Shown here: piece by piece, positions 20,428-59,955 of the stretch
Layout of the letters: each line of letters opens with the position of its first letter
How positions within the stretch are numbered: position 1 is the stretch's first letter
The notes under the pieces: model-generated
Databases searched by the model: none
What the model was told of the DNA's origin: nothing
What the model saw: only the letters and a program-made list of their open reading frames with translations
Program-made: the position numbers and the translations under genes
Assembly: GCA_040005235.1 (NCBI GenBank)
Contig: JBDTZG010000028.1
Span: forward strand, 6,940 to 70,939
Reading direction: 5' to 3'
Source of the DNA: Acidobacteriota bacterium
GTDB lineage: Bacteria; Acidobacteriota; Thermoanaerobaculia; Multivoradales; UBA5704
DNA length: 64,000 nucleotides

Positions 20428-22362
<1,935 letters not shown>

Positions 22363-22384
22363 GGGAAGGACCCCCTCCAGTATG

Positions 22385-23209
22385 CTACTCATTCGGGTGA
22401 ATGACAGGGAAGGTGATGCCGAACACGCTGTAAGCAACCTCCTGTTCGGTAGTCCATAGGCGATGGTCGATGCCTCGGTATTCGATAACGAACGGAATTC
22501 GTAGAGACCTCGGGCCCTGCGACGGCATGGGTACCTCTAATAGCGCGCGCTGGAGCGATGCGTTAAAGTTGCTGACGTTTTCATGAATGAACTCGCCAGG
22601 CTGGAGGCTTTGGAAAGGTCCTCTCACCAATGAGCTGCGGTCGCCGATACTGATCTTGGGTATATTGATGTTAACTGCTGACGCGAGACCAAGATTCACA
22701 ATGCGGACTCTCTCCACGGTGTACTCTTGGCCGGTCTCTTCGTGCTCGACTGCTTCGCGAAAATATTCGTCTATAACTACCCAGGGCCTCTGAGGCATCG
22801 TGACTATCGTTCCAGGAGCTCGGCTATCCAGTTCGCTGAGTGCAGTTTCCTCAGCTAATTGTTTCCAGGAGCGTAGGATAGTTTCGGGAAACCGATTTAC
22901 ATCAGAATCGATGAGTTTTGCGCAGGTTTGGCAAAGCCAAATCGCATTTTCTGCAGACTTTCTCTGTGACGCTGTAATTTCTGGATGGTAGCGAGGTCCG
23001 CCTGGAGAAGCGGAAGTGATATGAGCTGCCACGCCAACATTGATCACACCGTTCCCAAGGAGAGCTGGGCCGCAGGTTTGTTTTCGGCACTTTTCATTCG
23101 AACAGTGGTTGGCAACGCGGTGAGCCAGTTCTGCTTTGATTTTTGCGCTGAAGTCGTCTCTCATCCGTAGAGCCTCTAGTTCTTTTGTTGATCGAGAGAT
23201 CAGATACAT
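22385..23209 (-). CDS. HNH-nuclease-motif protein with unknown C-terminal domain
   Basis: CSNEKCRKQTC...AAHITSASPGGPRY...NAIWLCQTCAKLID shows a Cys pair, a His and an N...LC..C layout. It lies in visibly lower-GC DNA. Confidence 0.55.
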   Translation of the reverse strand: MYLISRSTKELEALRMRDDFSAKIKAELAHRVANHCSNEKCRKQTCGPALLGNGVINVGVAAHITSASPGGPRYHPEITASQRKSAENAIWLCQTCAKLIDSDVNRFPETILRSWKQLAEETALSELDSRAPGTIVTMPQRPWVVIDEYFREAVEHEETGQEYTVERVRIVNLGLASAVNINIPKISIGDRSSLVRGPFQSLQPGEFIHENVSNFNASLQRALLEVPMPSQGPRSLRIPFVIEYRGIDHRLWTTEQEVAYSVFGITFPVIHPNE

Positions 23210-23249
23210 CCACGGGCTCCTGGTTTAATTCTTGAAGGGCGAATTTCAA

Positions 23250-23331
23250 GGGCCGAAGGCCCATCCAATAATAGCCTAGGGCAACGCCCTAGGTTCCCGG
23301 TTCGCGCCCACCCCAAAAGGGCTGAAGGCCC
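23250..23331. repeat. REP-like hairpin cluster (3' side of the RAYT gene)
   Basis: GGGCCGAAGGCCC (23250-23262), CCTAGGGCAACGCCCTAGG (23275-23293), GGGCTGAAGGCCC (23319-23331). Confidence 0.65.
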
Positions 23332-23344
23332 GCACCATCCACCC

Positions 23345-23797
23345 TTAATCCCACACATACCGCTCATCGTAAGCCACTTTATATTTCGCCAGGAACGCCC
23401 GATATTCCTCCTGGAACGTGCGCGTTCGATGGTGCTCCTCCTGGTTGTCAATGTAGGCCACCAAAGCCTCCAGATCGCCGGGGCCGACAGAGAACACGCC
23501 GTAGCCGCGTTGCCACGCAAAGTTCTGAAGATCGGGCGACTGGGTCTTGAGCCATTTTGAGGAGGAAGTCTTGAGCTCTTCGACGAGGGCGGCAATCGTG
23601 ATCGTTCGAGAAAAGCGAATCGCCATGTGAACATGATCGGCCACGCCTCCGGCGCGATCGCAGAGGCAGCCCGCGTTGCGGGCGACGGTGGCCAAGTAGG
23701 CGTGTAGCGGTGTGCGGATCGTCGGTCCTATATATGCATAACGGTCCTTCGTGCTAAAGATCAGGTGAAGGACGACGTTGGCTAGCGATTGTGGCAT
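23345..23797 (-). CDS. IS200/IS605 family Y1 (HUH) transposase, REP-associated tyrosine transposase-like
   Basis: HUH motif (DHVHMAI), WQRGYGVFSV, and the Tyr region LVAYIDNQEEHH. 150 aa. Confidence 0.85.
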   Translation of the reverse strand: MPQSLANVVLHLIFSTKDRYAYIGPTIRTPLHAYLATVARNAGCLCDRAGGVADHVHMAIRFSRTITIAALVEELKTSSSKWLKTQSPDLQNFAWQRGYGVFSVGPGDLEALVAYIDNQEEHHRTRTFQEEYRAFLAKYKVAYDERYVWD

Positions 23798-23810
23798 GGT
23801 GAGTTAGGGC

Positions 23811-23893
23811 GGACTTTCAGTCCTTGGTGGGGTGCCAAACGGTCCTGTCCTGGGGCGTTGCCCCAGGCTTTTATAGGTTCGCGCCTTTGGCGC
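23811..23893. repeat. REP-like hairpin cluster (5' side of the RAYT gene)
   Basis: GGACTTTCAGTCC (23811-23823), CCTGGGGCGTTGCCCCAGG (23849-23867), GCGCCTTTGGCGC (23881-23893). Confidence 0.65.
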
Positions 23894-24046
23894 TGGCGGG
23901 ATCGTACACCTCGCCGACGGGTGGCGGCGACTCAGCTTCCTTAGCGTGTAATCCCCCTTACCGTTGGTGCCAAAGGGTAGACTGTGCTGAATCGGCACTG
24001 AGCACGGCCAGGAACCGCCGCAATCACCCTTCGATCTAAGCCAGGC

Positions 24047-48190: not shown

Positions 48191-48427
48191 TAGGGGCCAC
48201 CAGGACCCCGCGGTGGGCTCTGAAACCTCTTTCCGCAGGGTCGGCGCGGGCGGCAGAGTCGGCACGGGTGTTGAGTACCCGGTCCGGGCACGAGGCGTAC
48301 CTCAGGGGCTGTCGGCGCAAAAATTTGCGAAATTTGCCGCCCAGGGGTCCCGCTGTCTCGCATTGACGCGCCGAAGCACCGTAACATTGCAGAGACCACA
48401 CAATTGATTCGACCGAGGAGACCCCCC

Positions 48428-49888
48428 GTGTCGCAAAATCCTGTGCCGCTGCTTGCCGTGGTGTTGCGGAATCTCCGCGAGCGAGCCGGCTGGACCCAAG
48501 TCCGGCTCGAACGCGAGGCTCGCCTCAGCAAGGGATCGCTCTGCCGGCTGGAGAAGGGCAGCCAGACGGTCGATCGTTTCCTGCTCAATCGGCTGGCGAA
48601 GGTGATGAGAATCGCCGAGGGTGACGTGGAACAGGCGCTCGCAGTGCTGGAGCAGCTCCCGGCGGAGACCGGCGCCGGTTCGTCCGCGGACCTGCCGGTT
48701 CGCGACCGGCAGACGATCGAAACCGTCAGCGCGCGCTTTTCCCGCATGGTTCGCGAGAAGGCCCAGAACCGAATCGGGGGGAAGGTCCGCGCCCGGCGCT
48801 GGCGTCTCGACCGCGCGGCGGCCGCCGTGGCGTGGCAGCGGCTGCGCAAAATGCCCTCCGAGGATCGCCGGCTGATCGTTAAAGCGGTTGAGGCCTTTCA
48901 CACCTGGGCGGTGGTGGAACGGCTTTGCGAGGAGAGCGTAAGGGCGGCGGCCAGCGATATGGAGGAGGCCCGTAGGCTGGCGCAGCTTGCCCGGCAGGCC
49001 TCGACGGCCGCGAGCGGTGCCGAGCGAAGATATAAGTCGCTCGAAAATTACGCGGCGGCCTTCGAAGCGAACGCCTGGTGCGCTGCCGGCGAATTTCGGA
49101 AAGCCGAGCAGATTTTTGCCGAGGTCGATGCGCTCCATGGAGAAGGGCTGGACATCGCGGCAGTACCGGTCGATTGGGCCAGGCCACTGATCTTTCGAGC
49201 GGTGCTTATGATTTATCGGGCGAACCTCGATCCGGCATTGGAATGGCTGAACGAGGCGCTTTCGCTCACTCGCTCGCCGACCGTCAAGACTTGGGCGTTA
49301 ATCTGGCGAGCCGCTGTGCTCAAGCGGAAGCTCCAATTTCCCGCGGCGCTTGAGGAGCTGGAAAAGGCTCGGCCGTACGCCGAGCTTGCAGGCGATGCCC
49401 GGCTTCGATGGGCCATCGCCTTCAATGAAGCGGGTTATTTATGCGAAGCCGGCCATTTGGCGGAGGCTGCCGCCCGCCTTCCAGCCCTGAAGCTGGCAGC
49501 GTTGGAGCTCGGAGGAGCTCTGGATCGCCTGCGGCTCCGCTGGTTGACCGCGAGAGTGGCTGCTGCTTCAGGCCTGTTCCAGGAAGCCGCGACGAACCTC
49601 TCCGAGGTTTGGAATGCCTTTGCCGACCGGAACCTCTGGCTCGACGCGGCGATCGCGGTTCTCGAGCTGGCCAGCATCAACCTGGAGATGGGTCTGTCTG
49701 CCCAGGTCAAGAAGCTCGCCACGGCATCTGCTCACGTCTTCGCGGCGCAGACCCTGCCCGACCACCTTCTCGCGGCGGTTCGACTATTCTGGCAGGCCGC
49801 CCTTCAGGAAGCGGCCACTTCACAAATGGCGCGACAGCTGGTTGGGGACCTTCGCCGCGCCATGGTGGCAAACGCCGAAGCCTCCTGA
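48428..49888 (+). CDS. long XRE-HTH regulator with helical-repeat (TPR-like) C-terminal domain (R1)
   Basis: HTH LRNLRERAGWTQVRLEREARLSKGSLCRLEKG. Family signature FHTWAVVERLCEESV. About 300 aa of helical repeats. GTG 48428 has RBS GAGGAG; the track start is TTG 48404. Confidence 0.75.
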   Translation: MSQNPVPLLAVVLRNLRERAGWTQVRLEREARLSKGSLCRLEKGSQTVDRFLLNRLAKVMRIAEGDVEQALAVLEQLPAETGAGSSADLPVRDRQTIETVSARFSRMVREKAQNRIGGKVRARRWRLDRAAAAVAWQRLRKMPSEDRRLIVKAVEAFHTWAVVERLCEESVRAAASDMEEARRLAQLARQASTAASGAERRYKSLENYAAAFEANAWCAAGEFRKAEQIFAEVDALHGEGLDIAAVPVDWARPLIFRAVLMIYRANLDPALEWLNEALSLTRSPTVKTWALIWRAAVLKRKLQFPAALEELEKARPYAELAGDARLRWAIAFNEAGYLCEAGHLAEAAARLPALKLAALELGGALDRLRLRWLTARVAAASGLFQEAATNLSEVWNAFADRNLWLDAAIAVLELASINLEMGLSAQVKKLATASAHVFAAQTLPDHLLAAVRLFWQAALQEAATSQMARQLVGDLRRAMVANAEAS

Positions 49889-49907
49889 AGTCGTCGTCTC
49901 GCTTGGG

Positions 49908-50195
49908 CTAGGTCCCACACAGACCGTTCGGGTTGATCTCGCAGCCGACTTCGCCGAGAGGAGGCTTACTTCTCGGGCGACCGGAGTCGGAAGCACTGCG
50001 TCCGTCTGGGCTTGCGCCGCGGCGCCCGCTGGGCTCGATCTCGCAACCGCTCGGCGCCCACAGCGCGGAAAAGAATCTCCCGGCTTTGGCGAGCAGGTTC
50101 CCGAGATCCCACGGTGCGGCGGAGGCCTGGGTCGGGAAGGCGAGGACCACGACGAGAAGCAAGAGCGGCAGACGGCGGGGCGACGAAGCGGACAT
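49908..50195 (-). CDS. small secreted Cys-loop repeat peptide (pepA, 95 aa)
   Basis: Signal peptide MSASSPRRLPLLLLVVVLAFPTQASA, then FFSALW, module GCEIEPSGRRGAS and the terminal GCEINPNGLCGT. Paralogous to 58620-58952. Confidence 0.65.
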   Translation of the reverse strand: MSASSPRRLPLLLLVVVLAFPTQASAAPWDLGNLLAKAGRFFSALWAPSGCEIEPSGRRGASPDGRSASDSGRPRSKPPLGEVGCEINPNGLCGT

Positions 50196-51229: not shown

Positions 51230-51631
51230 TCAGTTCGGCGCCCGCCGACTTGCGTCCGGCGGAAGCTCCGGCGGCGGCGGGCCGAGACGGCGCTCCAGGT
51301 CGGCGATCTTCTGTTCGAGATCTTCCGCCAGGATTTCGAGAGCCTGACAGAGCCGGTCCTCTTCCTCGGTCACCGTCGAGAGCCGCCGGGTCGCGGCGAG
51401 CCCGGCGAACGCCTGCTTTGTATGCCAGAGGTCGTCGATGCCGGCGCGCGTTCCCGCCTTGAGCCACGGTTCTCCGAACCCCGAGCCGTCTTCCAGCTCC
51501 AGCGCTTCCTCGGCGATCTTTTCGCAGGCATCCTGGACGCGTTGGCGCAAACCCGGCCGGGTGAAATGGACCAGGACCGACTCGCGGAACGGCGCCATCT
51601 CTCTCCAGCGGCGCTTGATCGGGTTGGTCAT
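51230..51631 (-). CDS. hypothetical cytoplasmic protein (S1)
   Basis: 133 aa, with a 4-nt overlap with the upstream S2 gene. No recognisable motif. Confidence 0.5.
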   Translation of the reverse strand: MTNPIKRRWREMAPFRESVLVHFTRPGLRQRVQDACEKIAEEALELEDGSGFGEPWLKAGTRAGIDDLWHTKQAFAGLAATRRLSTVTEEEDRLCQALEILAEDLEQKIADLERRLGPPPPELPPDASRRAPN

Positions 51632-52062
51632 CCTGGGGATGCCCGTCGCTCAGTCCGCACGGCGGCCCGGTGCCGGCCCAGGCGTCTCTCCTGCACCAGA
51701 CCCAGGAATGCGTCCCGATTCGCGGCCCCATGGGTCATCAGCGCCGCGAAGACCCGAAGGTTCAGACGGGCACCTTCCGGGGGCGGTGTACCTTCCAAGA
51801 GGGCGAGCAGTCGGGCGGCCAGCTCCGGCAAGATGCCCCCTCGCCCCTGGCGCAACAATACGGTTCCCAGCTCGATGTAGGCGTCCGCCGCTGCCATCAC
51901 CTCGCCCGATGCGCGCCAGGTTCCCGCGGCGCGGCCGAACAGTCGCGCCGCCTCTTCGAGGTTCCCATCGTCCCGCTCGCGCTCGGCCCGGTCGAAGATC
52001 TCTCCGGCGGCCCGCCGCAACTCGCCGGGTGCGAGGGGAGAGGCCGGACTTACAGAGGCCAT
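51628..52062 (-). CDS. hypothetical helical protein (S2), resembles the C-terminal module of R1/R3
   Basis: 144 aa. ...DDGNLEEAARLFGRAAG...AADAYIELGTVLLRQG...LAARLLALL... parallels the R1 and R3 C-termini and paralog S3. Confidence 0.55.
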   Translation of the reverse strand: MASVSPASPLAPGELRRAAGEIFDRAERERDDGNLEEAARLFGRAAGTWRASGEVMAAADAYIELGTVLLRQGRGGILPELAARLLALLEGTPPPEGARLNLRVFAALMTHGAANRDAFLGLVQERRLGRHRAAVRTERRASPG

Positions 52063-52499
52063 TCCATTCCTTTTCTGTGCTTCCGGACGTCCGCGAGCAA
52101 CTCGCCTAGTAACGGCGAGCTCGGCGGGGTGATCTCGAGCAAGAGCAAAAGGTTGGAAAAAAGCTCGATTTCCGGCGGCGCCACGGCGAGCGTCGCCGGC
52201 TTGGCGGCGAGCCAGTCCGGCAGGTCGACACGTTCAAGGCGATAGACCGCGGCCAGCGAGAGCGCCGCTAGCCCTTCGAGCCAGGGTTGCTCCGCTTTGC
52301 CGAAGGCATGGACGGCGAGAATAAAACTCTCTTCTGCCTGGGACAGGTTGCCCGCCGCCGCGGCGCGCTCGGCAAAATCCATCGAGCGCCAAGCCAACCG
52401 GAAAAAAGCCGGATGCGCCGGTTCCTTAGCCGGCGCATCCGCGGGCCCTGCGAGCGCGAGAGGGGGTGCGGGTCGCCCGCAGGGGAAAAAGGAGTCCAT
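52050..52499 (-). CDS. hypothetical helical protein (S3), paralog of S2
   Basis: 149 aa. ...AAGNLSQAEESFILAVHAF...LAALSLAAVYRLE... has the same layout as S2. 13-nt overlap with S2. Confidence 0.5.
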   Translation of the reverse strand: MDSFFPCGRPAPPLALAGPADAPAKEPAHPAFFRLAWRSMDFAERAAAAGNLSQAEESFILAVHAFGKAEQPWLEGLAALSLAAVYRLERVDLPDWLAAKPATLAVAPPEIELFSNLLLLLEITPPSSPLLGELLADVRKHRKGMEWPL

Positions 52500-52694
52500 G
52501 CGTGCGAGGGTAGGTCCAGGGATTCAGCTTTCGCGCTAGCCTGCCGCTCGTGGATGGCGTAGTTATCCATTTCGATAACATTTCTTGGGATGCCGGGGAA
52601 CTTTCCCAGCTCGTCATGCCGAGCGAGAGCTCTGCACACTCCAGCGGAGGCGGGGGGGAGTTCCGGCACTACATTCAATATTGCAGGAACCACC

Positions 52695-53810
52695 CTAGGG
52701 CTGCAGGCCGCCGTTCCACGAAGTGTCCTTGAGCAGATCGGCCCAATTCACGTCGGCGCTCAGCACATTGAATTCGTCGCTGCCGTCCGAGAAGACGTTG
52801 AGGTGTGCCGCCCGCCGAAAGACCTCCTCGCCTTGAATTTCGAAGCCGGGCCGTAGCGGCGGCAAGATGTAGAGGCCCATCCACGGACTACCGGTTGGGT
52901 TACAGCCCGTCTGGCCGGAAGCGGTGCAGAAGGGGAGCGCCGTGATTTCGCCCGTCGTCAAGCGTCCCTGGGTATCGGTGTGCAGGCGCAGCAGGAAGGG
53001 GATTTCCAGGTCACTGTAGACACACACTCCGTCGTCATCGCAGGAAAGGGCAGAGTCATAGGCGTCAATCCGGTAAGTCAGCGGCTCCTCCGCCCGGTAG
53101 AGAGCGGTCTTGTAGGAAATAAAGGCGCAGAACGGATTGGGAATGGGTTCCGCCAGGCAGCCTGTCGGCCGAACCGTCCGCGCGAGGATCGAGTAGACCT
53201 TGAGGTCAAAGTCGGTCACTTCGGTATGGCAGGGAGAGAGTAGGTCGTCGACGGTCAAACCGCGTCCCGCGGTGTCCGCGTGGTCCGCCTGCGCGTCCTG
53301 GAGAGTGGTGATCCGAATCGAATTCTTCGGCTGAAAAGGGTCTGGCGGCTCCCGGGACAGGATGAGATCCACGAGCATCGAGAACCGGGTCGTCCCCTCG
53401 AGATTCGAAGACGCATCCCGCCGAACCAAGGTGGCCTGGGGCCGGCGATCCCTTCGGGGGTTCAAGAAGTCCTCGTCCTCGCGAAGGATCAGGTCGAACG
53501 CCAGCTGTTTCTCCTGTCGCTCGCGGTCGCCTTGAACCGTGGTGTGTCGCAACTGGCTGGTGCTGGCCAATCCTCTGTAGGTGCCGCCATTGGCGCTCGA
53601 CCGCCAGAGGAGGAGGCTCGACTCCCCGTAGGAAACCCCCATGCGGTGCAGCAACCTCCCCATTTGCCGCTCTTCGCAGGCGACCTGCTCGGACGTGAGG
53701 GGGCGGCCGAAGGGCTGGGCCACAGCATTGCGTACCGCACATGCGCCGAAGACCAGGGCCACGGCCCAAGCCGGCACCCGCCACCCTACGGCTGCAGGCC
53801 GCCGTTCCAC
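52695..53810 (-). CDS. secreted Cys-containing protein of unknown function (P1), tandem paralog of P2
   Basis: Collinear with P2 over the full length (QPFG.PLTSEQVACEERQMGRLLHRMGVSYGE ... NWADLLKDTSWNGGLQP). GTG start at 53810; an alternative is GTG 53777. Confidence 0.7.
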   Translation of the reverse strand: MERRPAAVGWRVPAWAVALVFGACAVRNAVAQPFGRPLTSEQVACEERQMGRLLHRMGVSYGESSLLLWRSSANGGTYRGLASTSQLRHTTVQGDRERQEKQLAFDLILREDEDFLNPRRDRRPQATLVRRDASSNLEGTTRFSMLVDLILSREPPDPFQPKNSIRITTLQDAQADHADTAGRGLTVDDLLSPCHTEVTDFDLKVYSILARTVRPTGCLAEPIPNPFCAFISYKTALYRAEEPLTYRIDAYDSALSCDDDGVCVYSDLEIPFLLRLHTDTQGRLTTGEITALPFCTASGQTGCNPTGSPWMGLYILPPLRPGFEIQGEEVFRRAAHLNVFSDGSDEFNVLSADVNWADLLKDTSWNGGLQP

Positions 53811-54889
53811 GAGGTGTCCTTGAGCAGGTCCGCCCAGTTGACGTCGGCACGTAGAATGTTCAAGTCAGGAAAGGCAACCGAGAAAAGGTTCAGGTGGGCC
53901 GCACGCCGAAAGACTTCCTCTCCCTGAACCTCGATGCCGGGTCTCAGGGGAGGTAAGACGTAAAGGCCCATCCAAGGACTGTCCTCCGGGCTGCATCCGG
54001 TTTGGCCCGACGCTGTGCAAAACGGCAGCAGCGAGACCTCCCCGGATGCCAACCGGCCTTGGGCGTCGGCTTGGATGCGAAACAGCAGTGAATTCTGCTC
54101 GTCGCTGTAAACGCACACGCCGTCTTCGTCGCAGGACAACGAGGAGAGATATACGTCGGCCCGATAGGTCAGCGGCTCCTCCGCGCGGTAGAACGCGGTT
54201 TTAAAGGAAATGAATCCGCAGACCGGGTTGGGAATGGGTTCCGCCAGGCAGCCCGTCGGCCGCACCGTCCGGGCGAGGATCGAGTAGACCTTTAGGTCGA
54301 AATCGGTCACCTCAGTATGGCAGGTATTCAAAAGGTCGTCGACGGTCAGACCGCGTCCGGCGGTGTCCGCGTGGTCCTCCGGCGCTTCCTGGAGGGTGGT
54401 GATCCGGATCGAATTCTTTGGGTGGAAAGGGTCGGGCGGCTCCGGGGACAGGATGAGATCTACGAGCATCGAGAACCGGGTCGTTCCCATCGGGTCGAGG
54501 TTCGACGCCGCGTCCCGCCGGACCAGCGTCGCCTGCGGGCGGCGTTCCCGCCGGGGGTTCAAGAAGTCTTCATCGGCGCGGAGAATCAGGTCAAACGCCA
54601 GCTGTTTCTCATCGCGCATCCGGATGTCTACGGTCGTCGTAGGATCGAAATAAAGGTGGTCCGTACTGGCCAAGCCTCTGTAGCTGCCGCCGTTGGCCGC
54701 CGATCGCCAAAGGTAGAGGCCAGCCTCGCCATATGAGACCCCCATACGATGAAGCAATCGCCCCATCTGGCGCTCCTCGCAGGCGACCTGCTCGGACGTG
54801 AGGGGGCTGCCGAAGGGCTGGGCCGCCATAATTCCCGGGGCGATGATTACCAGGAAGAGAATCGCGAACAACGCGCTTTTGGGTTTCAT
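53786..54889 (-). CDS. secreted Cys-containing protein of unknown function (P2)
   Basis: ATG 54889 with signal peptide MKPKSALFAILFLVIIAPGIMAAQ. The track ORF's N-terminal extension is rejected. Confidence 0.75.
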   Translation of the reverse strand: MKPKSALFAILFLVIIAPGIMAAQPFGSPLTSEQVACEERQMGRLLHRMGVSYGEAGLYLWRSAANGGSYRGLASTDHLYFDPTTTVDIRMRDEKQLAFDLILRADEDFLNPRRERRPQATLVRRDAASNLDPMGTTRFSMLVDLILSPEPPDPFHPKNSIRITTLQEAPEDHADTAGRGLTVDDLLNTCHTEVTDFDLKVYSILARTVRPTGCLAEPIPNPVCGFISFKTAFYRAEEPLTYRADVYLSSLSCDEDGVCVYSDEQNSLLFRIQADAQGRLASGEVSLLPFCTASGQTGCSPEDSPWMGLYVLPPLRPGIEVQGEEVFRRAAHLNLFSVAFPDLNILRADVNWADLLKDTSWNGGLQP

Positions 54890-55098
54890 AGCTTCCCCGC
54901 TGAACCTGTCTTCTGTTGGACCTGGAGAACGATGTCGAAGGAATAGAACGGCGAAACGATCTCGCAACTTCCCCCGTTGCAGGTTTTGTGGATGGGATCC
55001 CAATTGATGGTCTGGACTGCCGTCATGGTTCCCGTTGCCGGCGTGACCCACTGGACCTCGAACCGATCGGCCGTCGGTCCGAGGTTCAAGAGCGTCAA
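54886..55098 (-). CDS. small protein X, translationally coupled to P2; the true N-terminus is probably further upstream
   Basis: ATGA overlap with the P2 start. The frame stays open and protein-like up to about 55320, but the first ATG/GTG/TTG in frame is TTG 55098. Confidence 0.5.
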   Translation of the reverse strand: MTLLNLGPTADRFEVQWVTPATGTMTAVQTINWDPIHKTCNGGSCEIVSPFYSFDIVLQVQQKTGSAGKL

Positions 55099-55321
55099 GC
55101 GGTCTTGGTATTTCTGCGCCAGCCAGATCCGCGCGTCGAAAGCGTTGCGCGGGAGAAATATCGGTTTGGCGCTCGGAGACGTGGACTCTTTGGGGCATCC
55201 GTTCGCAGTGAACTCCGCCTCGGGCGCGTTCGATGCCGTGCTGGCCGCGCAGCGGATCGTGCTGTGGTGTAGATAGAGCAGGAAAAGCCGGTTCGGCTCC
55301 GGTCTCCGACCTGGATCGGCA

Positions 55322-56821
55322 TCAATCGGTATCCGTCGGAGATTGAGGGCCTTGATGTAGGTCGGGTCTCGCAGCGCTATTGGGCAGCCCTCCAGACCAA
55401 GCTGACCGGGACGAGGTGAGGCGCCCGAGCGGCAGCGCGTTGACGAATTTCTTGAGTACGCCGAGTTGGCGCCGAATGGTCGCGGGGGTGTTCGGGTCGC
55501 CTCCGGAGAGATATCCGAAATGGTCGTAGGTGGCGCCCTGGTCGAACAGAAACTCCCAGGCTTCGGCGCGCGCCGGTTCGGCGAGCTTTTCTGTCAGGGC
55601 GCCGTTGGTATGGGCGCGGGTGCCGCTCTTGCCTCCGACATCTGGGTTGCCGATGAACTGACCGGCGCCTTTGGTCGTAAACGGCTGTACCGCCACCAAA
55701 TGCCCGCCGGCGGCCAAGCGCGGGTATTTCGCTTCCTGAAAGGTGACCTGGGCAATCATGTCGCGCTGCCACTTGGCGACCTCGAGGGGATCGACGGTCT
55801 GGGCCTCCGGCTCGTTGGCGATCTCCCAATAGACGGTGTCGAAGCACCAGAGTTCTTGGACCGTCCACTCGATCACTTTGGCCTGGGCCACGCGCATGCG
55901 CTCGTTCGTCAGGGCCTCCTGGGTGCCTCGCGTGTCGTGGGTCACGAAGTACTCGGGCTTTGAGAACTTCACCGTCTCGAACGTCCCGTCCGACTTCGGC
56001 ATCATCCCCTTGCCGCCCCAGGGACCCTGGGAGAAGAAATCTCCCTCGAACGGCGCGAAGATGGTCACTTCGACGATCATCTTCCTCGGGTCCTGGGCGT
56101 AGGCCACGACATCGCGCAAGCGTTGGAAATACCGCGTGTTCGGCTTGTCCAGGCGCCAGAACGGGTAGGCGTTGGCCGGGAAGTTGGCGCAGTCGGGGCT
56201 CGCCACGGCGCTCGGGCAATAGAGGAACGGGACGTTGTTCGGGTTTTTCTCTCCGGCCAGGGCGATCCAGAGGCGGAGCTTGTTCAGGCCCGCTTCGAAG
56301 GCGGCTTGGATCGTCGTGGGGTAGTTGGTCCAGTTGCATTTGTCGGAGGAGAGTTCGAGGTGGCAGCCGTTGTCAGCCGAGACGCCGACGAGGGTCTGGA
56401 TCGTGTTGCGGTACGAAAAGTAGCGCGAGGCGAAAGGCAGGGCGGCGGTCGTTTTGCCGATCTTGATCGGGGTGATCGTCTGCGTGATGTTGCCGCAACC
56501 GGTGGCGGAAATCGTGGGATCGGCCGGAACGTCGGGGTCGGTGCCCAGCAGCTCGGGCGGATAGAGATCCTCCGAGTCGAGCGAATTCGGGTCGCCGTCG
56601 TAGGGGAGCAAGTCGTCGCCGAGGGTCCACAGCTCGGCGGGCAAGCTGGGGTCGGTGGTCGAGCCACCGTCGCCGAAGACGGAAGAGAGGGGTGGCTCTT
56701 CTTCGGGTCCGGGTGGGGGTTGGGCGGGAAGGGGGGCACCGACCGAGAGGAACGAAAGAAAGATGAAGGCGAGGGTCGCACGGTGGCAGAGGGATAAGAG
56801 TAGCGAGCGAGTTCGGTCCAC
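55322..56821 (-). CDS. secreted glycoside hydrolase clan GH-A (GH5-like) candidate
   Basis: Signal peptide, a Pro/Asp-rich linker and a TIM-barrel-like domain with YWEIANEPE (the NEP acid/base motif). GTG start at 56821 with RBS AAAGGA. Confidence 0.5.
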   Translation of the reverse strand: MDRTRSLLLSLCHRATLAFIFLSFLSVGAPLPAQPPPGPEEEPPLSSVFGDGGSTTDPSLPAELWTLGDDLLPYDGDPNSLDSEDLYPPELLGTDPDVPADPTISATGCGNITQTITPIKIGKTTAALPFASRYFSYRNTIQTLVGVSADNGCHLELSSDKCNWTNYPTTIQAAFEAGLNKLRLWIALAGEKNPNNVPFLYCPSAVASPDCANFPANAYPFWRLDKPNTRYFQRLRDVVAYAQDPRKMIVEVTIFAPFEGDFFSQGPWGGKGMMPKSDGTFETVKFSKPEYFVTHDTRGTQEALTNERMRVAQAKVIEWTVQELWCFDTVYWEIANEPEAQTVDPLEVAKWQRDMIAQVTFQEAKYPRLAAGGHLVAVQPFTTKGAGQFIGNPDVGGKSGTRAHTNGALTEKLAEPARAEAWEFLFDQGATYDHFGYLSGGDPNTPATIRRQLGVLKKFVNALPLGRLTSSRSAWSGGLPNSAARPDLHQGPQSPTDTD

Positions 56822-57158: not shown

Positions 57159-58613
57159 ATGCCCAAGGTGGACCTGCCGCCGACGAATGCGGCGCTATTG
57201 ATTTTGCGCATCCTGTGTCGCCTGACACAGGATGAGTTCGGCGAGCTGACCGGCATGAAGAGCCGGATCGTCGAGATCGAGAATGGCCGGTATGTCCTTA
57301 AGCGCGCCGAGCTCGAAGATCTGGTGGAGGAGCTCAAGGTGTCGGCCTACGCGGTGCCGGTCGCCCTCGGCCTATCGGAGCTGGTGTTGCCGTCGACCGA
57401 CAAGACCCCCCACCCCTGGGAGGCGACGCCCGACGCGCGGTTTCAGGCCGAGCGCGCGACCCTCGAATCGTCCGCCATCGTGCGCCGTCTGTTCCTCGCC
57501 GAAGCGCGCGCGGAGCGCTACGCGGCGGACCGCGAGGAGGCCGAGCGCCTCTGGAAGCTGCTTGCGCCGCTCAATCGCGACCGGCGGCGGGTGATGGCCC
57601 GGATCGTCGATTTCTCGACCTGGGCGGTGGTCGAGCGCCTCTGCATCGAGAGCCTCAGGGGAGCGCCTCGGGATCCCGGGGCCGCCCGCTCGCTCGCCGA
57701 GCTGGCCGTTGAGGTGGCCCAGAGGATTCCGCCGCTGCCCAGGTTCAGCGATCGGGTGGAAGGGTACGCCCAGGCCCACTTGGGCAACGCCTTTCGAGTC
57801 GGGAACGACTTTGACGAGGCGGTTCGCGCTTTCGCGCTCGTCGCGAAACTTTGGATCGAGTTCCTGCCGGGCGAGGCCTGCCCGTTTGACGTGACGCTGA
57901 TCCCCGACCTAGAAGCTTCTCTGCGCCGCGATCAGCGTCAATTCTCCTTAGCGTTCGCTGGGCACGACCGGGCTCTTTCCTTCGCTGTCGAGGATGCGAT
58001 CCGCGGGCGCATCCTCCTCAATAAGGCAGTGACATTCGAGCATTCCGGCGATCCAGTTGGTGCGGTTGCAACTCTCAGCGCTGCTCAGCCTCTTATCGAC
58101 ACGAGCAACGAAACCCGGCTGGGTTGTGTCGCGCGTTTCAACTTGGCGGTCAACCTCCTCCATCTTGGAAACGCCTTAGATGCCGAGCCGCTGATCGCCG
58201 AGGTGCGGGCGCTTGCGATCGAACAGCGAAACGAGCTTGACCTGATCCGGGTCCTTTGGCTCTCCGGCCGCCTTGCCGCCGCGCAAGGAGATCGGGCGAA
58301 GGCGATGGTCTCGATCGATGACGCGGCCTGTCGCTTCGCCGAACAGGGCCTCGGATATGACGCCGCACTGGCGGTGCTCGACCTCGCGGGGCTGCTCTTG
58401 GAAGAAGGCAACCCGAGAGAGGCAGCCCGGAGGGTGGCCGAGGTGCAACCCACTTTCCACGTGCGAAACATTCACCGGGAGGAACTGGCGAGCCTGGTTC
58501 TGTTCCTCCAAGCCGTCGAAACCGAAGCGGCGACCGCCGCGCTGGCGCGCGCGGCGGCCGAGGCCTGGAGGTTGTTCGGCACGCCCGTTCCTTTCGGAAG
58601 TCTGGCCGACTGA
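57159..58613 (+). CDS. long XRE-HTH regulator with helical-repeat (TPR-like) C-terminal domain (R3)
   Basis: HTH LTQDEFGELTGMKSRIVEIENG. Signature FSTWAVVERLCIESL. The C-terminal repeats are collinear with R1. Confidence 0.75.
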   Translation: MPKVDLPPTNAALLILRILCRLTQDEFGELTGMKSRIVEIENGRYVLKRAELEDLVEELKVSAYAVPVALGLSELVLPSTDKTPHPWEATPDARFQAERATLESSAIVRRLFLAEARAERYAADREEAERLWKLLAPLNRDRRRVMARIVDFSTWAVVERLCIESLRGAPRDPGAARSLAELAVEVAQRIPPLPRFSDRVEGYAQAHLGNAFRVGNDFDEAVRAFALVAKLWIEFLPGEACPFDVTLIPDLEASLRRDQRQFSLAFAGHDRALSFAVEDAIRGRILLNKAVTFEHSGDPVGAVATLSAAQPLIDTSNETRLGCVARFNLAVNLLHLGNALDAEPLIAEVRALAIEQRNELDLIRVLWLSGRLAAAQGDRAKAMVSIDDAACRFAEQGLGYDAALAVLDLAGLLLEEGNPREAARRVAEVQPTFHVRNIHREELASLVLFLQAVETEAATAALARAAAEAWRLFGTPVPFGSLAD

Positions 58614-58619
58614 AATGAA

Positions 58620-58952
58620 CTACTGGCCGCAGCGACCCTCTGGGTCGACGACGCAACCCGCGTCGCGAAGGATCGGCGCCGGGGCACTCGACGAACCGCA
58701 GCGGCCGTAGGGATCGAGGCTGCAGCCCACGTCGCTGAGGATCGGCACCGGGGCGCTCGACGGGCCGCGGCCGCCGTGGGGGTCGAGGCTGCAGCCCTCC
58801 TCCTCCCAGAGGGCCGAAAGAAACGACCAGCCGCGGGCGAACAGGTCGGGGAGGGTGCGATCGAGCGGCAAGGCGCCGGCCGGGAAGGCACTGAGGAGGA
58901 AGAGGGCTAGCAGAGCGACGGCGAGGGCGAGGTGACGCTTCGGTTGGGGCAT
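58620..58952 (-). CDS. small secreted Cys-loop repeat peptide (pepB, 110 aa)
   Basis: Signal peptide MPQPKRHLALAVALLALFLLSAFPAGA, then FLSALW and three modules: GCSLDPHGGRGPSS, GCSLDPYGRCGSS and the terminal GCVVDPEGRCGQ. The modules are encoded by 69-bp tandem DNA repeats. Confidence 0.7.
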   Translation of the reverse strand: MPQPKRHLALAVALLALFLLSAFPAGALPLDRTLPDLFARGWSFLSALWEEEGCSLDPHGGRGPSSAPVPILSDVGCSLDPYGRCGSSSAPAPILRDAGCVVDPEGRCGQ

Positions 58953-59028
58953 GGCGGTGGGCTCCTGGTCAGCCCGGGAACCTCCGGCCGGGATGGCCGG
59001 CGGCCCGGTACGAAGGGGTTCAGAGGGT

Positions 59029-59046
59029 AACCCAAGTTTTTGGGTT
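59029..59046. promoter_or_regulatory. AT-rich inverted repeat between pepB and R4
   Basis: AACCCAA-GTTT-TTGGGTT, with perfect 7-bp arms, 22 bp upstream of the R4 ATG. Confidence 0.4.
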
Positions 59047-59067
59047 CATTTTTCTCTTGGAGGGATC

Positions 59068-59955
59068 ATGGAACGGAAATCCGGCAGAACGCGAGACGTT
59101 CGCTCAGGACTCAGTGCGGCACCCACCCCTGGCGCCGCCGCGAAGGGGGGAAGGGCCGCGGCCAAAGCGCGGGACGCCGAGTACTCGGCTCTGTTGGTCC
59201 GGTATATGGATGCGACGGTCGGCCCGCGGCACGACCAGTTCGCGGAGTTGGTCGAGATCAGCGCGGCGCGGGCGAGCCTCTACCGCTACGGCTACAAGGT
59301 GCCCCGGCCCGAGACGAAGGCCCGTTTCTCCGGCCGGGTCGGGCTGCCGATCGAATGGTTCGAGGCGATGACCGCCGACTCGTTGTTTCTCCGCGGCAAA
59401 AGCTCAAAGCCGGCGGGAAGTACTCCCGCAGCCCTGGCGGAAGACCTCTCCCGCCGGCTCGCGGGCCAGCTCGCCCCGCGGTTCGCGGCGTTGCGCAGCG
59501 TAGCCCCCGCCGCCCCTCCTCCTCCTCCTCCTTCGCTCGAACGGGCGGCGGCCGATCGAGCCGAGGCGGACCGGCATTGGACCGAAATCGAGCCGCTCAC
59601 CGCCGCCGAGCGCGCCCTCGCGGTGCCGGAGATCCCGAGGTTCCACTCCTGGGCGCTGGTCGAGCTGCTCTGCGGAAAAAGTGTAGAGGCCGCGCCCGTG
59701 TCGCCGGCCGAAGCGCTCGCCCTCGCCAAGCTGGCCATACGACTGGCCCGCCGGGTCCAAGCAAGCCAAGGATTTCGCGACCGCCTGATGGGCTACGCCC
59801 TCCTCCACTCGGCCGCCGCACTCAAGAGCCTGAACGACCTGCCGCGAGCCCGGGAAGCCCGCGCGCGCGGGCTACGGCTTTTCGCGGCGGGGCGGAAGGA
59901 GGATCCGGGGTTGCTGGATGAAGCGATCGCCGAGGGACTCGCGTCGTCGTCGTAG
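59068..59955 (+). CDS. short XRE-HTH regulator paralog (R4)
   Basis: RBS GGAGGG lies before ATG 59068. HTH-like HDQFAELVEISAARASLYRYG. Signature FHSWALVELLCGKSV. Confidence 0.65.
   Translation: MERKSGRTRDVRSGLSAAPTPGAAAKGGRAAAKARDAEYSALLVRYMDATVGPRHDQFAELVEISAARASLYRYGYKVPRPETKARFSGRVGLPIEWFEAMTADSLFLRGKSSKPAGSTPAALAEDLSRRLAGQLAPRFAALRSVAPAAPPPPPPSLERAAADRAEADRHWTEIEPLTAAERALAVPEIPRFHSWALVELLCGKSVEAAPVSPAEALALAKLAIRLARRVQASQGFRDRLMGYALLHSAAALKSLNDLPRAREARARGLRLFAAGRKEDPGLLDEAIAEGLASSS

Follow-up and report, generated by a model that had tools for sequence, protein, structure and literature searches.

Tandem genes for secreted proteins of a lineage-restricted Acidobacteriota family, encoded behind the remains of a predicted GH5-like glycosidase gene

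Introduction

What keeps two adjacent genes for secreted proteins in a genome when neither product resembles a characterised family and the gene ahead of them has decayed? The question is raised by P1 and P2, a tandem pair on the reverse strand of a 64,000-nt stretch of an Acidobacteriota genome (class Thermoanaerobaculia; assembly GCA_040005235.1, contig JBDTZG010000028.1, positions 6,940 to 70,939), hereafter the window, whose coordinates are used throughout (Table 1). The original prediction described the pair as old paralogues encoding secreted, Cys-containing proteins with no recognisable domain, and as the core cargo of an operon that diverges from a regulator gene, R3. Lineage-specific "dark" families are common. 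Several features lift this one above an ordinary hypothetical protein, namely a confidently predicted fold without a match, strict pairing with an enzyme gene, modular reuse, a gene-conversion mosaic and a neighbourhood of peptide and regulator genes. The Thermoanaerobaculia are widespread, mostly uncultured Acidobacteriota of soil and sediment, and the family is a testable handle on their barely known extracellular biology.

An intact tandem pair with an uneven history

P1 and P2 are intact tandem paralogues maintained by selection. Both open reading frames (ORFs) are full length and carry all residues invariant in their subfamily, and the two proteins are collinear, as had been predicted, with 275 of 345 aligned positions identical (80%, BLASTP E = 0) and two 2-residue gaps. 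The motifs first quoted for the pair (QPFG.PLTSEQVACEERQMGRLLHRMGVSYGE, TRFSMLVDLILS.EPPDPF.PKNSIRITTLQ and NWADLLKDTSWNGGLQP) are all found in both proteins. At the DNA level, the repeat unit (53781–54824 vs. 52690–53721, 78% identity over 1045 nt) starts in the final codons of the signal peptide and ends 5 nt beyond the stop codon. Evolutionarily, the dN/dS between the paralogues, a comparison suggested with the original prediction, is 0.14 (Nei-Gojobori over 340 mature codons, dN 0.127, dS 0.915), and both copies are clearly under purifying selection.

The duplication is indeed old, with a dS of ~0.9 and an orthologous P2-like/P1-like tandem pair in another metagenome-assembled genome (MAG), La3_concoct.109 (locus L009). 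Synonymous divergence is unevenly spread along the pair, from ~0.4 over codons 100–220 to more than 2 in the C-terminal third. There, P1 is 0.89 identical to the downstream copy of L009 and 0.73 identical to P2, and the duplication therefore predates the split of the two organisms. Over the central segment, each copy is closest to its neighbour in its own genome (0.88 identity in the window and 0.91 in L009, vs. ~0.75 between genomes). This is concerted evolution, in which gene conversion has made the central segments of the two copies alike, and the P1/P2 pair is a mosaic whose 80% overall identity overstates the uniformity of its divergence. The locus also records tandem secreted-protein genes kept alike by gene conversion beside a decaying enzyme gene.

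Gene starts and export

The P2 frame is open up to 55198, and the ATG at 54889 was preferred for its Shine-Dalgarno (SD)-like GGGGAAG and for the signal peptide that starts there. For P1, the proposal that the gene begins within the 3′ end of P2 is plausible, as the longest ORF opens at a GTG 25 nt inside P2 with AAGGA 7–11 nt upstream, but NCBI calls a later GTG and a 355-aa product. The long N-terminus (VERRPAAVGWRVPAWAVALVFG) is conserved in the downstream gene of the L009 pair, the orthologue of P1, where it reads VERRLAAVRGQLTAWAVALVFG in the same frame, and is the only one of the start choices with a charged n-region, which makes the overlapping start plausible, though not proven.

Both proteins open with a hydrophobic signal peptide predicted to be cleaved after A-x-A and before Q, in keeping with the predicted secretion, and the signal peptide and its "AAAQxFGxPLT" junction are conserved across 60 homologues. 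As a separate observation, the putative P1 signal peptide carries a twin-arginine within VERRPAAV (its L009 orthologue reads VERRLAAV) while that of P2 is a typical Lys-rich Sec signal, so that the export routes of the two might differ. Mature P1 and P2 each hold eight Cys at equivalent positions, of which three are invariant and two nearly invariant, bearing out the conserved positions reported earlier; this suggests a disulfide-stabilised protein.

A family restricted to Thermoanaerobaculia

To a word-indexed search of 5.8 billion proteins, the pair returned 79 clusters of ~360-aa proteins, all labelled hypothetical and, where named, from Acidobacteriota/Thermoanaerobaculia MAGs, and an exhaustive hidden Markov model search of 1.84 billion representatives recovered 173 relatives in all, which makes the family a rare one. 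Scanning 185,579 GTDB species genomes yielded 30 loci, every one of them from a MAG assigned to Thermoanaerobaculia or "Holophagales"; a single genome accounted for at least 10. The window's own genome holds a third paralogue (ABJC13_09195), and a profile search for a distant subfamily likewise returned only Thermoanaerobaculia/Acidobacteriota names, including ABJC13_00605 of this genome. Wherever the source names the organism, the family is restricted to the Acidobacteriota class Thermoanaerobaculia.

Neither P1 nor P2 matched a family above threshold in Pfam, NCBIfam, PADLOC or PHROGs (an HTH_33 match at 16 bits, with a cut-off of 25, was rejected as spurious), searches of the PDB by sequence and by profile gave no match, and no account of the family turned up in a search of the literature. 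The claim of no recognisable domain therefore stands as far as curated families go, but P1 and P2 are no orphans. Their family is uncharacterised and confined to one lineage, and the libraries searched revealed no relative of it by sequence or structure. Broken or truncated copies of the family and of its partner (N-terminal fragments, split ORFs) are frequent in other MAGs (L001:9143-9436; L003:9140-10272; L006:5830-7473; L005:2252-2798), and reflect either rapid gene decay in arrays or assembly problems at tandem repeats.

A confident model without a structural match

An AlphaFold2 model of P2, built from a 60-sequence alignment, reached a pLDDT of 86 and a pTM of 0.87. The predicted structure is alpha+beta and two-lobed, each lobe consisting of a long helix followed by, and packed on, a long twisted antiparallel sheet. 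Foldseek against the PDB gave a best E of 0.011 with TM below 0.2, a weak resemblance that corresponds to a generic helix-on-sheet arrangement in one sub-domain and allows no fold assignment, and neither a carbohydrate-binding module (CBM) nor an enzyme fold was matched among the hits. Of the known folds, alpha+beta rolls of the cystatin/NTF2/VirB8/PepSY type were considered among the nearest for comparison. Structure prediction and remote homology searches, the checks first proposed for the pair, thus gave no characterised match, and the enzyme or adhesin family that would have made it ordinary was not found: for all its confidence, the model has no structural counterpart in the PDB. An internal duplication, or internal tandem-repeat protein, was rejected, as hhalign of the N-terminal against the C-terminal half gave a probability of 0.1% and the halves are not detectably homologous.

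Within the P1/P2 subfamily, the invariant residues are C37, R44, W61, G72, R124, R179, C190, D198, R210, R235, P239, Y242, G283, C299, P313, W352 and W361, and this pattern of C, R, G, P and W also holds in the distant subfamily. Across both subfamilies we found no conserved His, Ser or Glu constellation suggesting catalysis.

A GH5-like glycosidase as the upstream partner

The family gene follows directly on one kind of partner gene in 7 of the first 8 loci, and in about 25 of the 29 loci with an upstream flank, at gaps of 10–27 nt; other neighbours are unrelated. Partner proteins (~680–800 aa) are Pfam-poor, with PF00150 matched by 23 of 43 members (best E 6.6e-9). The partner model (pLDDT 89) matches in fold the GH5 mannanase ManDH5 (E 2e-14), Bacteroides (BT/BVU) GH5-like proteins and a GH140 apiosidase, the C-terminal beta-sandwich included. 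GH5 signature residues are conserved in intact orthologues (R174, N326-E327, which is invariant, H391-Y392, the nearly invariant E433, and W466), and the same orthologues show what defines clan GH-A, namely a (beta/alpha)8 barrel in which beta4 carries the Asn-Glu acid/base and beta7 the Glu nucleophile. Sequence and model together point to a secreted, divergent clan GH-A glycosidase that is GH5-like and ends in a beta-sandwich. It resembles the GH5 and GH140 members of the clan in its TIM-barrel model and its conserved R, N-E, H-Y, E and W, but differs from typical ones in being very divergent, with most members below the Pfam threshold, and in a long Pro/Asp-rich N-terminal linker.

Family and partner co-diverge (r = 0.88), the family being slightly more conserved (mean identity 0.50 vs. 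0.46, higher in 54 of 66 comparisons). Several loci have more than one family gene in tandem after a single partner gene, with ~4 copies in L016, two each in L006, L009 and L013, and a full, a broken and a full copy in L003. The ancestral unit is a gene for the GH5-like glycosidase followed by one for the family protein. At a distant locus, L007:1-12274, this cassette has divergently transcribed GH13/GlgE genes on one side and, immediately downstream, a TonB-dependent receptor gene on the other, a layout that resembles a polysaccharide-utilisation locus.

The partner is a pseudogene in the window

NCBI annotates the 5′ part of the window's partner gene as a 499-aa product (ABJC13_14670), and an identical product is present in an independent Logan assembly. 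A simple frameshift was considered as the lesion and replaced by a deletion, an inversion and a frame break. The in-frame deletion of ~56 aa takes out beta6 "NGHYT" and beta7 "GFNETKIT", including the predicted nucleophile Glu, so that this copy, unlike its intact orthologues, lacks the beta6-beta7 segment of a clan GH-A barrel. Downstream, orthologue residues ~514–549 are encoded on the opposite strand at 55291–55398, and the inverted segment is flanked by a weak 9-nt inverted repeat (55297–55305 and 55403–55411, 7/9 nt). Flipping 55306–55402 in silico restores the upstream frame, but the beta-sandwich (55293–54886) is still off by 1 nt. The idea of an inverton, a reversible switch within the gene, was accordingly rejected, given the frame left unrestored by the flip, the deleted catalytic segment and a repeat matching at 7/9 nt.

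The ancestral stop of the partner (TGA, 54886–54888) overlaps the P2 start as ATGA, which points to former translational coupling of the two. This overlap, together with a terminator-like hairpin ~255 nt past the P1 stop, argues for a transcription unit of partner pseudogene, P2 and P1, with its intact cargo limited to the last two. The pair was thus rightly called core cargo, although that description was incomplete: the glycosidase gene (54886–56821) heads the operon. Terminators were sought by a consensus scan only, and 6 terminator-like sites compare with 4.7 expected from shuffles, so the support for this hairpin is its own strength and not the site count; it is likely the end of the transcription unit. 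A sigma-70 promoter scan, which is uninformative for this phylum, found none.

Table 1. Features of the P1/P2 locus, in coordinates of the window
Feature	Position	Strand	Basis and remarks
Terminator-like hairpin	52410..52441	-	12-bp stem, 10 G-C pairs, T-tract
P1 coding sequence	52695..53810	-	371 aa from GTG at 53810; NCBI ABJC13_14655 = 355 aa
P1 signal peptide (putative), VERRPAAVGWRVPAWAVALVFGACAVRNAVA followed by QPFG	53718..53810	-	Sequence unrelated to that of P2
P2 3′ end / putative P1 GTG start overlap	53786..53810	-	25 nt; read from sequence; same arrangement in L009
P2 coding sequence	53786..54889	-	367 aa from ATG; NCBI ABJC13_14660; exact match to P0001
P2 signal peptide, MKPKSALFAILFLVIIAPGIMAA followed by QPFG	54821..54889	-	Predicted cleavage site
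SD-like GGGGAAG 5′ of P2 ATG	54892..54898	-	Read from sequence
Partner pseudogene, GH5-like (clan GH-A) glycosidase	54886..56821	-	Homologues, PF00150, fold match, lesions
Inverted partner segment, ~100 bp	55291..55411	+	tblastn 69% identity, E 3e-13
Junction of in-frame deletion, ~56 aa	55636..55637	-	Alignment with intact orthologues P0224, P0225 and P0227
WEIANEPE, clan GH-A acid/base "NEP" motif	55805..55828	-	Retained in partner
R3, divergent HTH(XRE)+TPR regulator	57159..58613	+	Pfam HTH_19/HTH_3/TPR; 337 bp from partner start codon

Domain fusions in a sister subfamily

The distant, sister subfamily consists of the same domain and is likewise from Thermoanaerobaculia where named. Here, the domain sits C-terminally on matrixin/reprolysin-like (M10/M12) metalloproteases with FN3 or Calx-beta, follows cupredoxin and Calx-beta or ELWxxDGT repeats, or sits N-terminally on PIG-L/LmbE-type deacetylases (6 representatives) and on a GH-A-like barrel with GNE and ITETGW motifs (P0206); two tandem copies occur in 9 proteins. 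No Rosetta-stone fusion with the GH5-like partner family was found, as the partner profile (A2) matched no distant member, and the sole GH-A-like fusion is the weaker case of P0206.

The distant-subfamily copy in the window's genome (ABJC13_00605, 318 aa, L040:7001-9996) overlaps by 4 nt the gene of a 680-aa cupredoxin+Calx-beta protein. In relatives such as P0174, P0160 and P0215, proteins of this architecture have the family domain at their end. By analogy with these, the two genes may represent one more case of the domain in tandem.

Function: a binding module for secreted hydrolases?

Our tentative preference, a possibility that we would put somewhat short of even, is that the P1/P2 family is a non-catalytic extracellular binding module serving secreted hydrolases. 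This reading draws on its secretion, the even number of Cys, the lack of a catalytic signature, and the recurrence of the domain at either terminus, often duplicated, in cis with hydrolases and adhesion modules and in trans with the glycosidase. In such a scheme, a P1/P2-type protein would first be exported by Sec and form its disulfides, and would then bind a polymer via a surface rich in invariant Arg, Trp and Tyr, as predicted from sequence conservation; these residues are compatible with glycan binding. The polymer would most likely be a glycan, either the substrate of the enzyme or a cell-surface polysaccharide, and binding would target or retain a secreted hydrolase. The P1/P2 subfamily would act in trans for the co-transcribed GH5-like enzyme, and the sister subfamily in cis on the metalloproteases, sugar deacetylases and GH-A-like barrel to which it is fused. 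Given that two copies recur as tandem genes or domains, the module may work as a pair.

By behaviour, we would file the family with accessory modules for secreted hydrolases. Like the CBMs and accessory modules of CAZy, it is extracellular and apparently non-catalytic, has conserved aromatic and Arg residues, and is found fused, at either terminus and often as tandem copies, to glycosidase-like, deacetylase and protease domains. As expected of modules appended to or encoded with carbohydrate-active enzymes, it stands beside the GH5-like enzyme in most loci (~25/29) and in fusions with PIG-L and GH-A-like domains, although protease and adhesion fusions also occur. Unlike CBMs, it has no Pfam CBM match, is mostly a stand-alone secreted protein, and is modelled as ~340 aa of two-lobed alpha+beta structure, not as a small beta-sandwich. 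If glycan binding is correct, the family would add both a new fold and a new family to the accessory modules of carbohydrate-active enzymes.

Several points weigh against this assignment. Classical CBMs are mostly beta-sandwiches of 40–200 aa, which the P1/P2 fold does not resemble; sister-subfamily proteins are often stand-alone, with no enzyme gene (and no GH5-like one) beside them; and a structural relative of known function may exist outside the PDB search. Awkwardly for a helper-only role, the partner is a pseudogene here and yet P1 and P2 are under purifying selection. With the enzyme decayed and the pair intact, either the enzyme was lost recently or P1 and P2 have a role independent of it.

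This last point counts in favour of an unlikely alternative, in which the family protein is an inhibitor or immunity protein that blocks the co-encoded GH5-like glycosidase, and the tandem copies are orphan immunity genes left after decay of the enzyme as toxin. As in effector-immunity pairs, the enzyme gene is followed at once by the family gene, with a short gap (10–27 nt) or an ATGA overlap, arrays of 2–4 copies stand behind a single enzyme gene (L003, L016), there are many cassettes per genome, and in the window both family genes have been maintained behind a dead enzyme gene. However, an immunity protein would be specific to its toxin, and the toxin linked to a delivery system, whereas this domain is found alone and is reused in fusions to modules as unrelated as Calx-beta, cupredoxin, ELWxxDGT repeats, PIG-L and proteases, the family evolves more slowly than the enzyme, and neither secretion-system or toxin-delivery genes nor a toxin-type domain were seen in the cassettes. 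GH5 enzymes are not known as antibacterial effectors, which also counts against this alternative. Were inhibition nevertheless correct, the family would represent a new class of bacterial glycosidase inhibitor.

It is also improbable that the family is an enzyme of new fold (e.g., an esterase, lyase or isomerase) acting on the same extracellular polymer as the glycosidase, its fused versions adding a second catalytic activity. R44, R124, R179, R210, R235, D198, E38 and E94 are very highly conserved in both subfamilies, the family is more conserved than its glycosidase partner, and fusions to PIG-L and GH-A-like catalytic domains are also typical of multi-catalytic enzymes. Set against these, a hydrolase-type constellation of conserved His, Ser, Cys or Glu is lacking, the conserved Cys are even in number, as if paired in disulfides, and H191, which lies beside the invariant C190, varies within the P1/P2 subfamily. 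In addition, tandem duplication within a polypeptide is more typical of binding modules, and the model matches no enzyme fold.

Still less credit is due to a carrier of lipids or other hydrophobic ligands (TULIP/BPI-like), or a structural surface protein functionally unrelated to the glycosidase, which we consider very unlikely: the long helix on a long twisted antiparallel sheet in each half would suit it, but the TULIP/BPI-like match is at noise level among unrelated hits, no significant fold match having been obtained, and the glycosidase synteny and hydrolase fusions would be left unexplained. Finally, that P1 and P2 are non-functional relics or annotation artefacts, as the adjoining pseudogene and the broken copies common in other MAGs might suggest, is effectively refuted by full-length ORFs with all invariant residues, a dN/dS of 0.14, orthologues conserved across species and a confident structure prediction.

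Regulator and peptide genes around the cassette

R3 encodes a regulator with a helix-turn-helix (HTH) and tetratricopeptide repeats (TPR). The operon does diverge from it across 337 bp, as originally described, but only some loci, about a third to half, have a homologous HTH-TPR regulator within 6 kb of the cassette, in varying orientation, and many cassettes go without. Control of P1/P2 by R3 is therefore at most plausible.

On either side of the cassette (48404–50195 and 57159–59955) stands a module in which an XRE-HTH+TPR regulator gene adjoins one for a small secreted peptide, and similar modules are found near the cassettes of L001, L009, L010, L014, L017, L025, L027, L034 and L035. The peptide (95–110 aa), whose gene usually adjoins that of the regulator, has a signal peptide followed by 2–3 repeats of GC.[IL][DEN]P.G.CG. 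Regulator and peptide look like an RRNPP-style peptide-sensing pair in Acidobacteriota. It is tempting to speculate further, at rather long odds, that the domain is a truly new fold forming a lineage-specific, multi-copy extracellular recognition system of Thermoanaerobaculia, reshuffled by gene conversion, paired with divergent glycosidases and switched on by adjacent HTH-TPR regulators that sense the Cys-repeat peptides; this would place an RRNPP-like signalling circuit outside the Firmicutes, in control of a new class of binding or inhibitor proteins.

Downstream of P1, the reverse strand at 51230–52693 holds several ORFs of 133–149 aa with TPR-like, Ala/Leu-rich sequences. The terminator-like hairpin falls inside one of them, which makes their coding status doubtful; they may be remnants of a regulator gene, comparable to the regulator fragment that follows the tandem pair in L009. 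Elsewhere in the window, the G+C content falls to 0.57 at 22001–24000, against 0.62–0.72 over the remainder.

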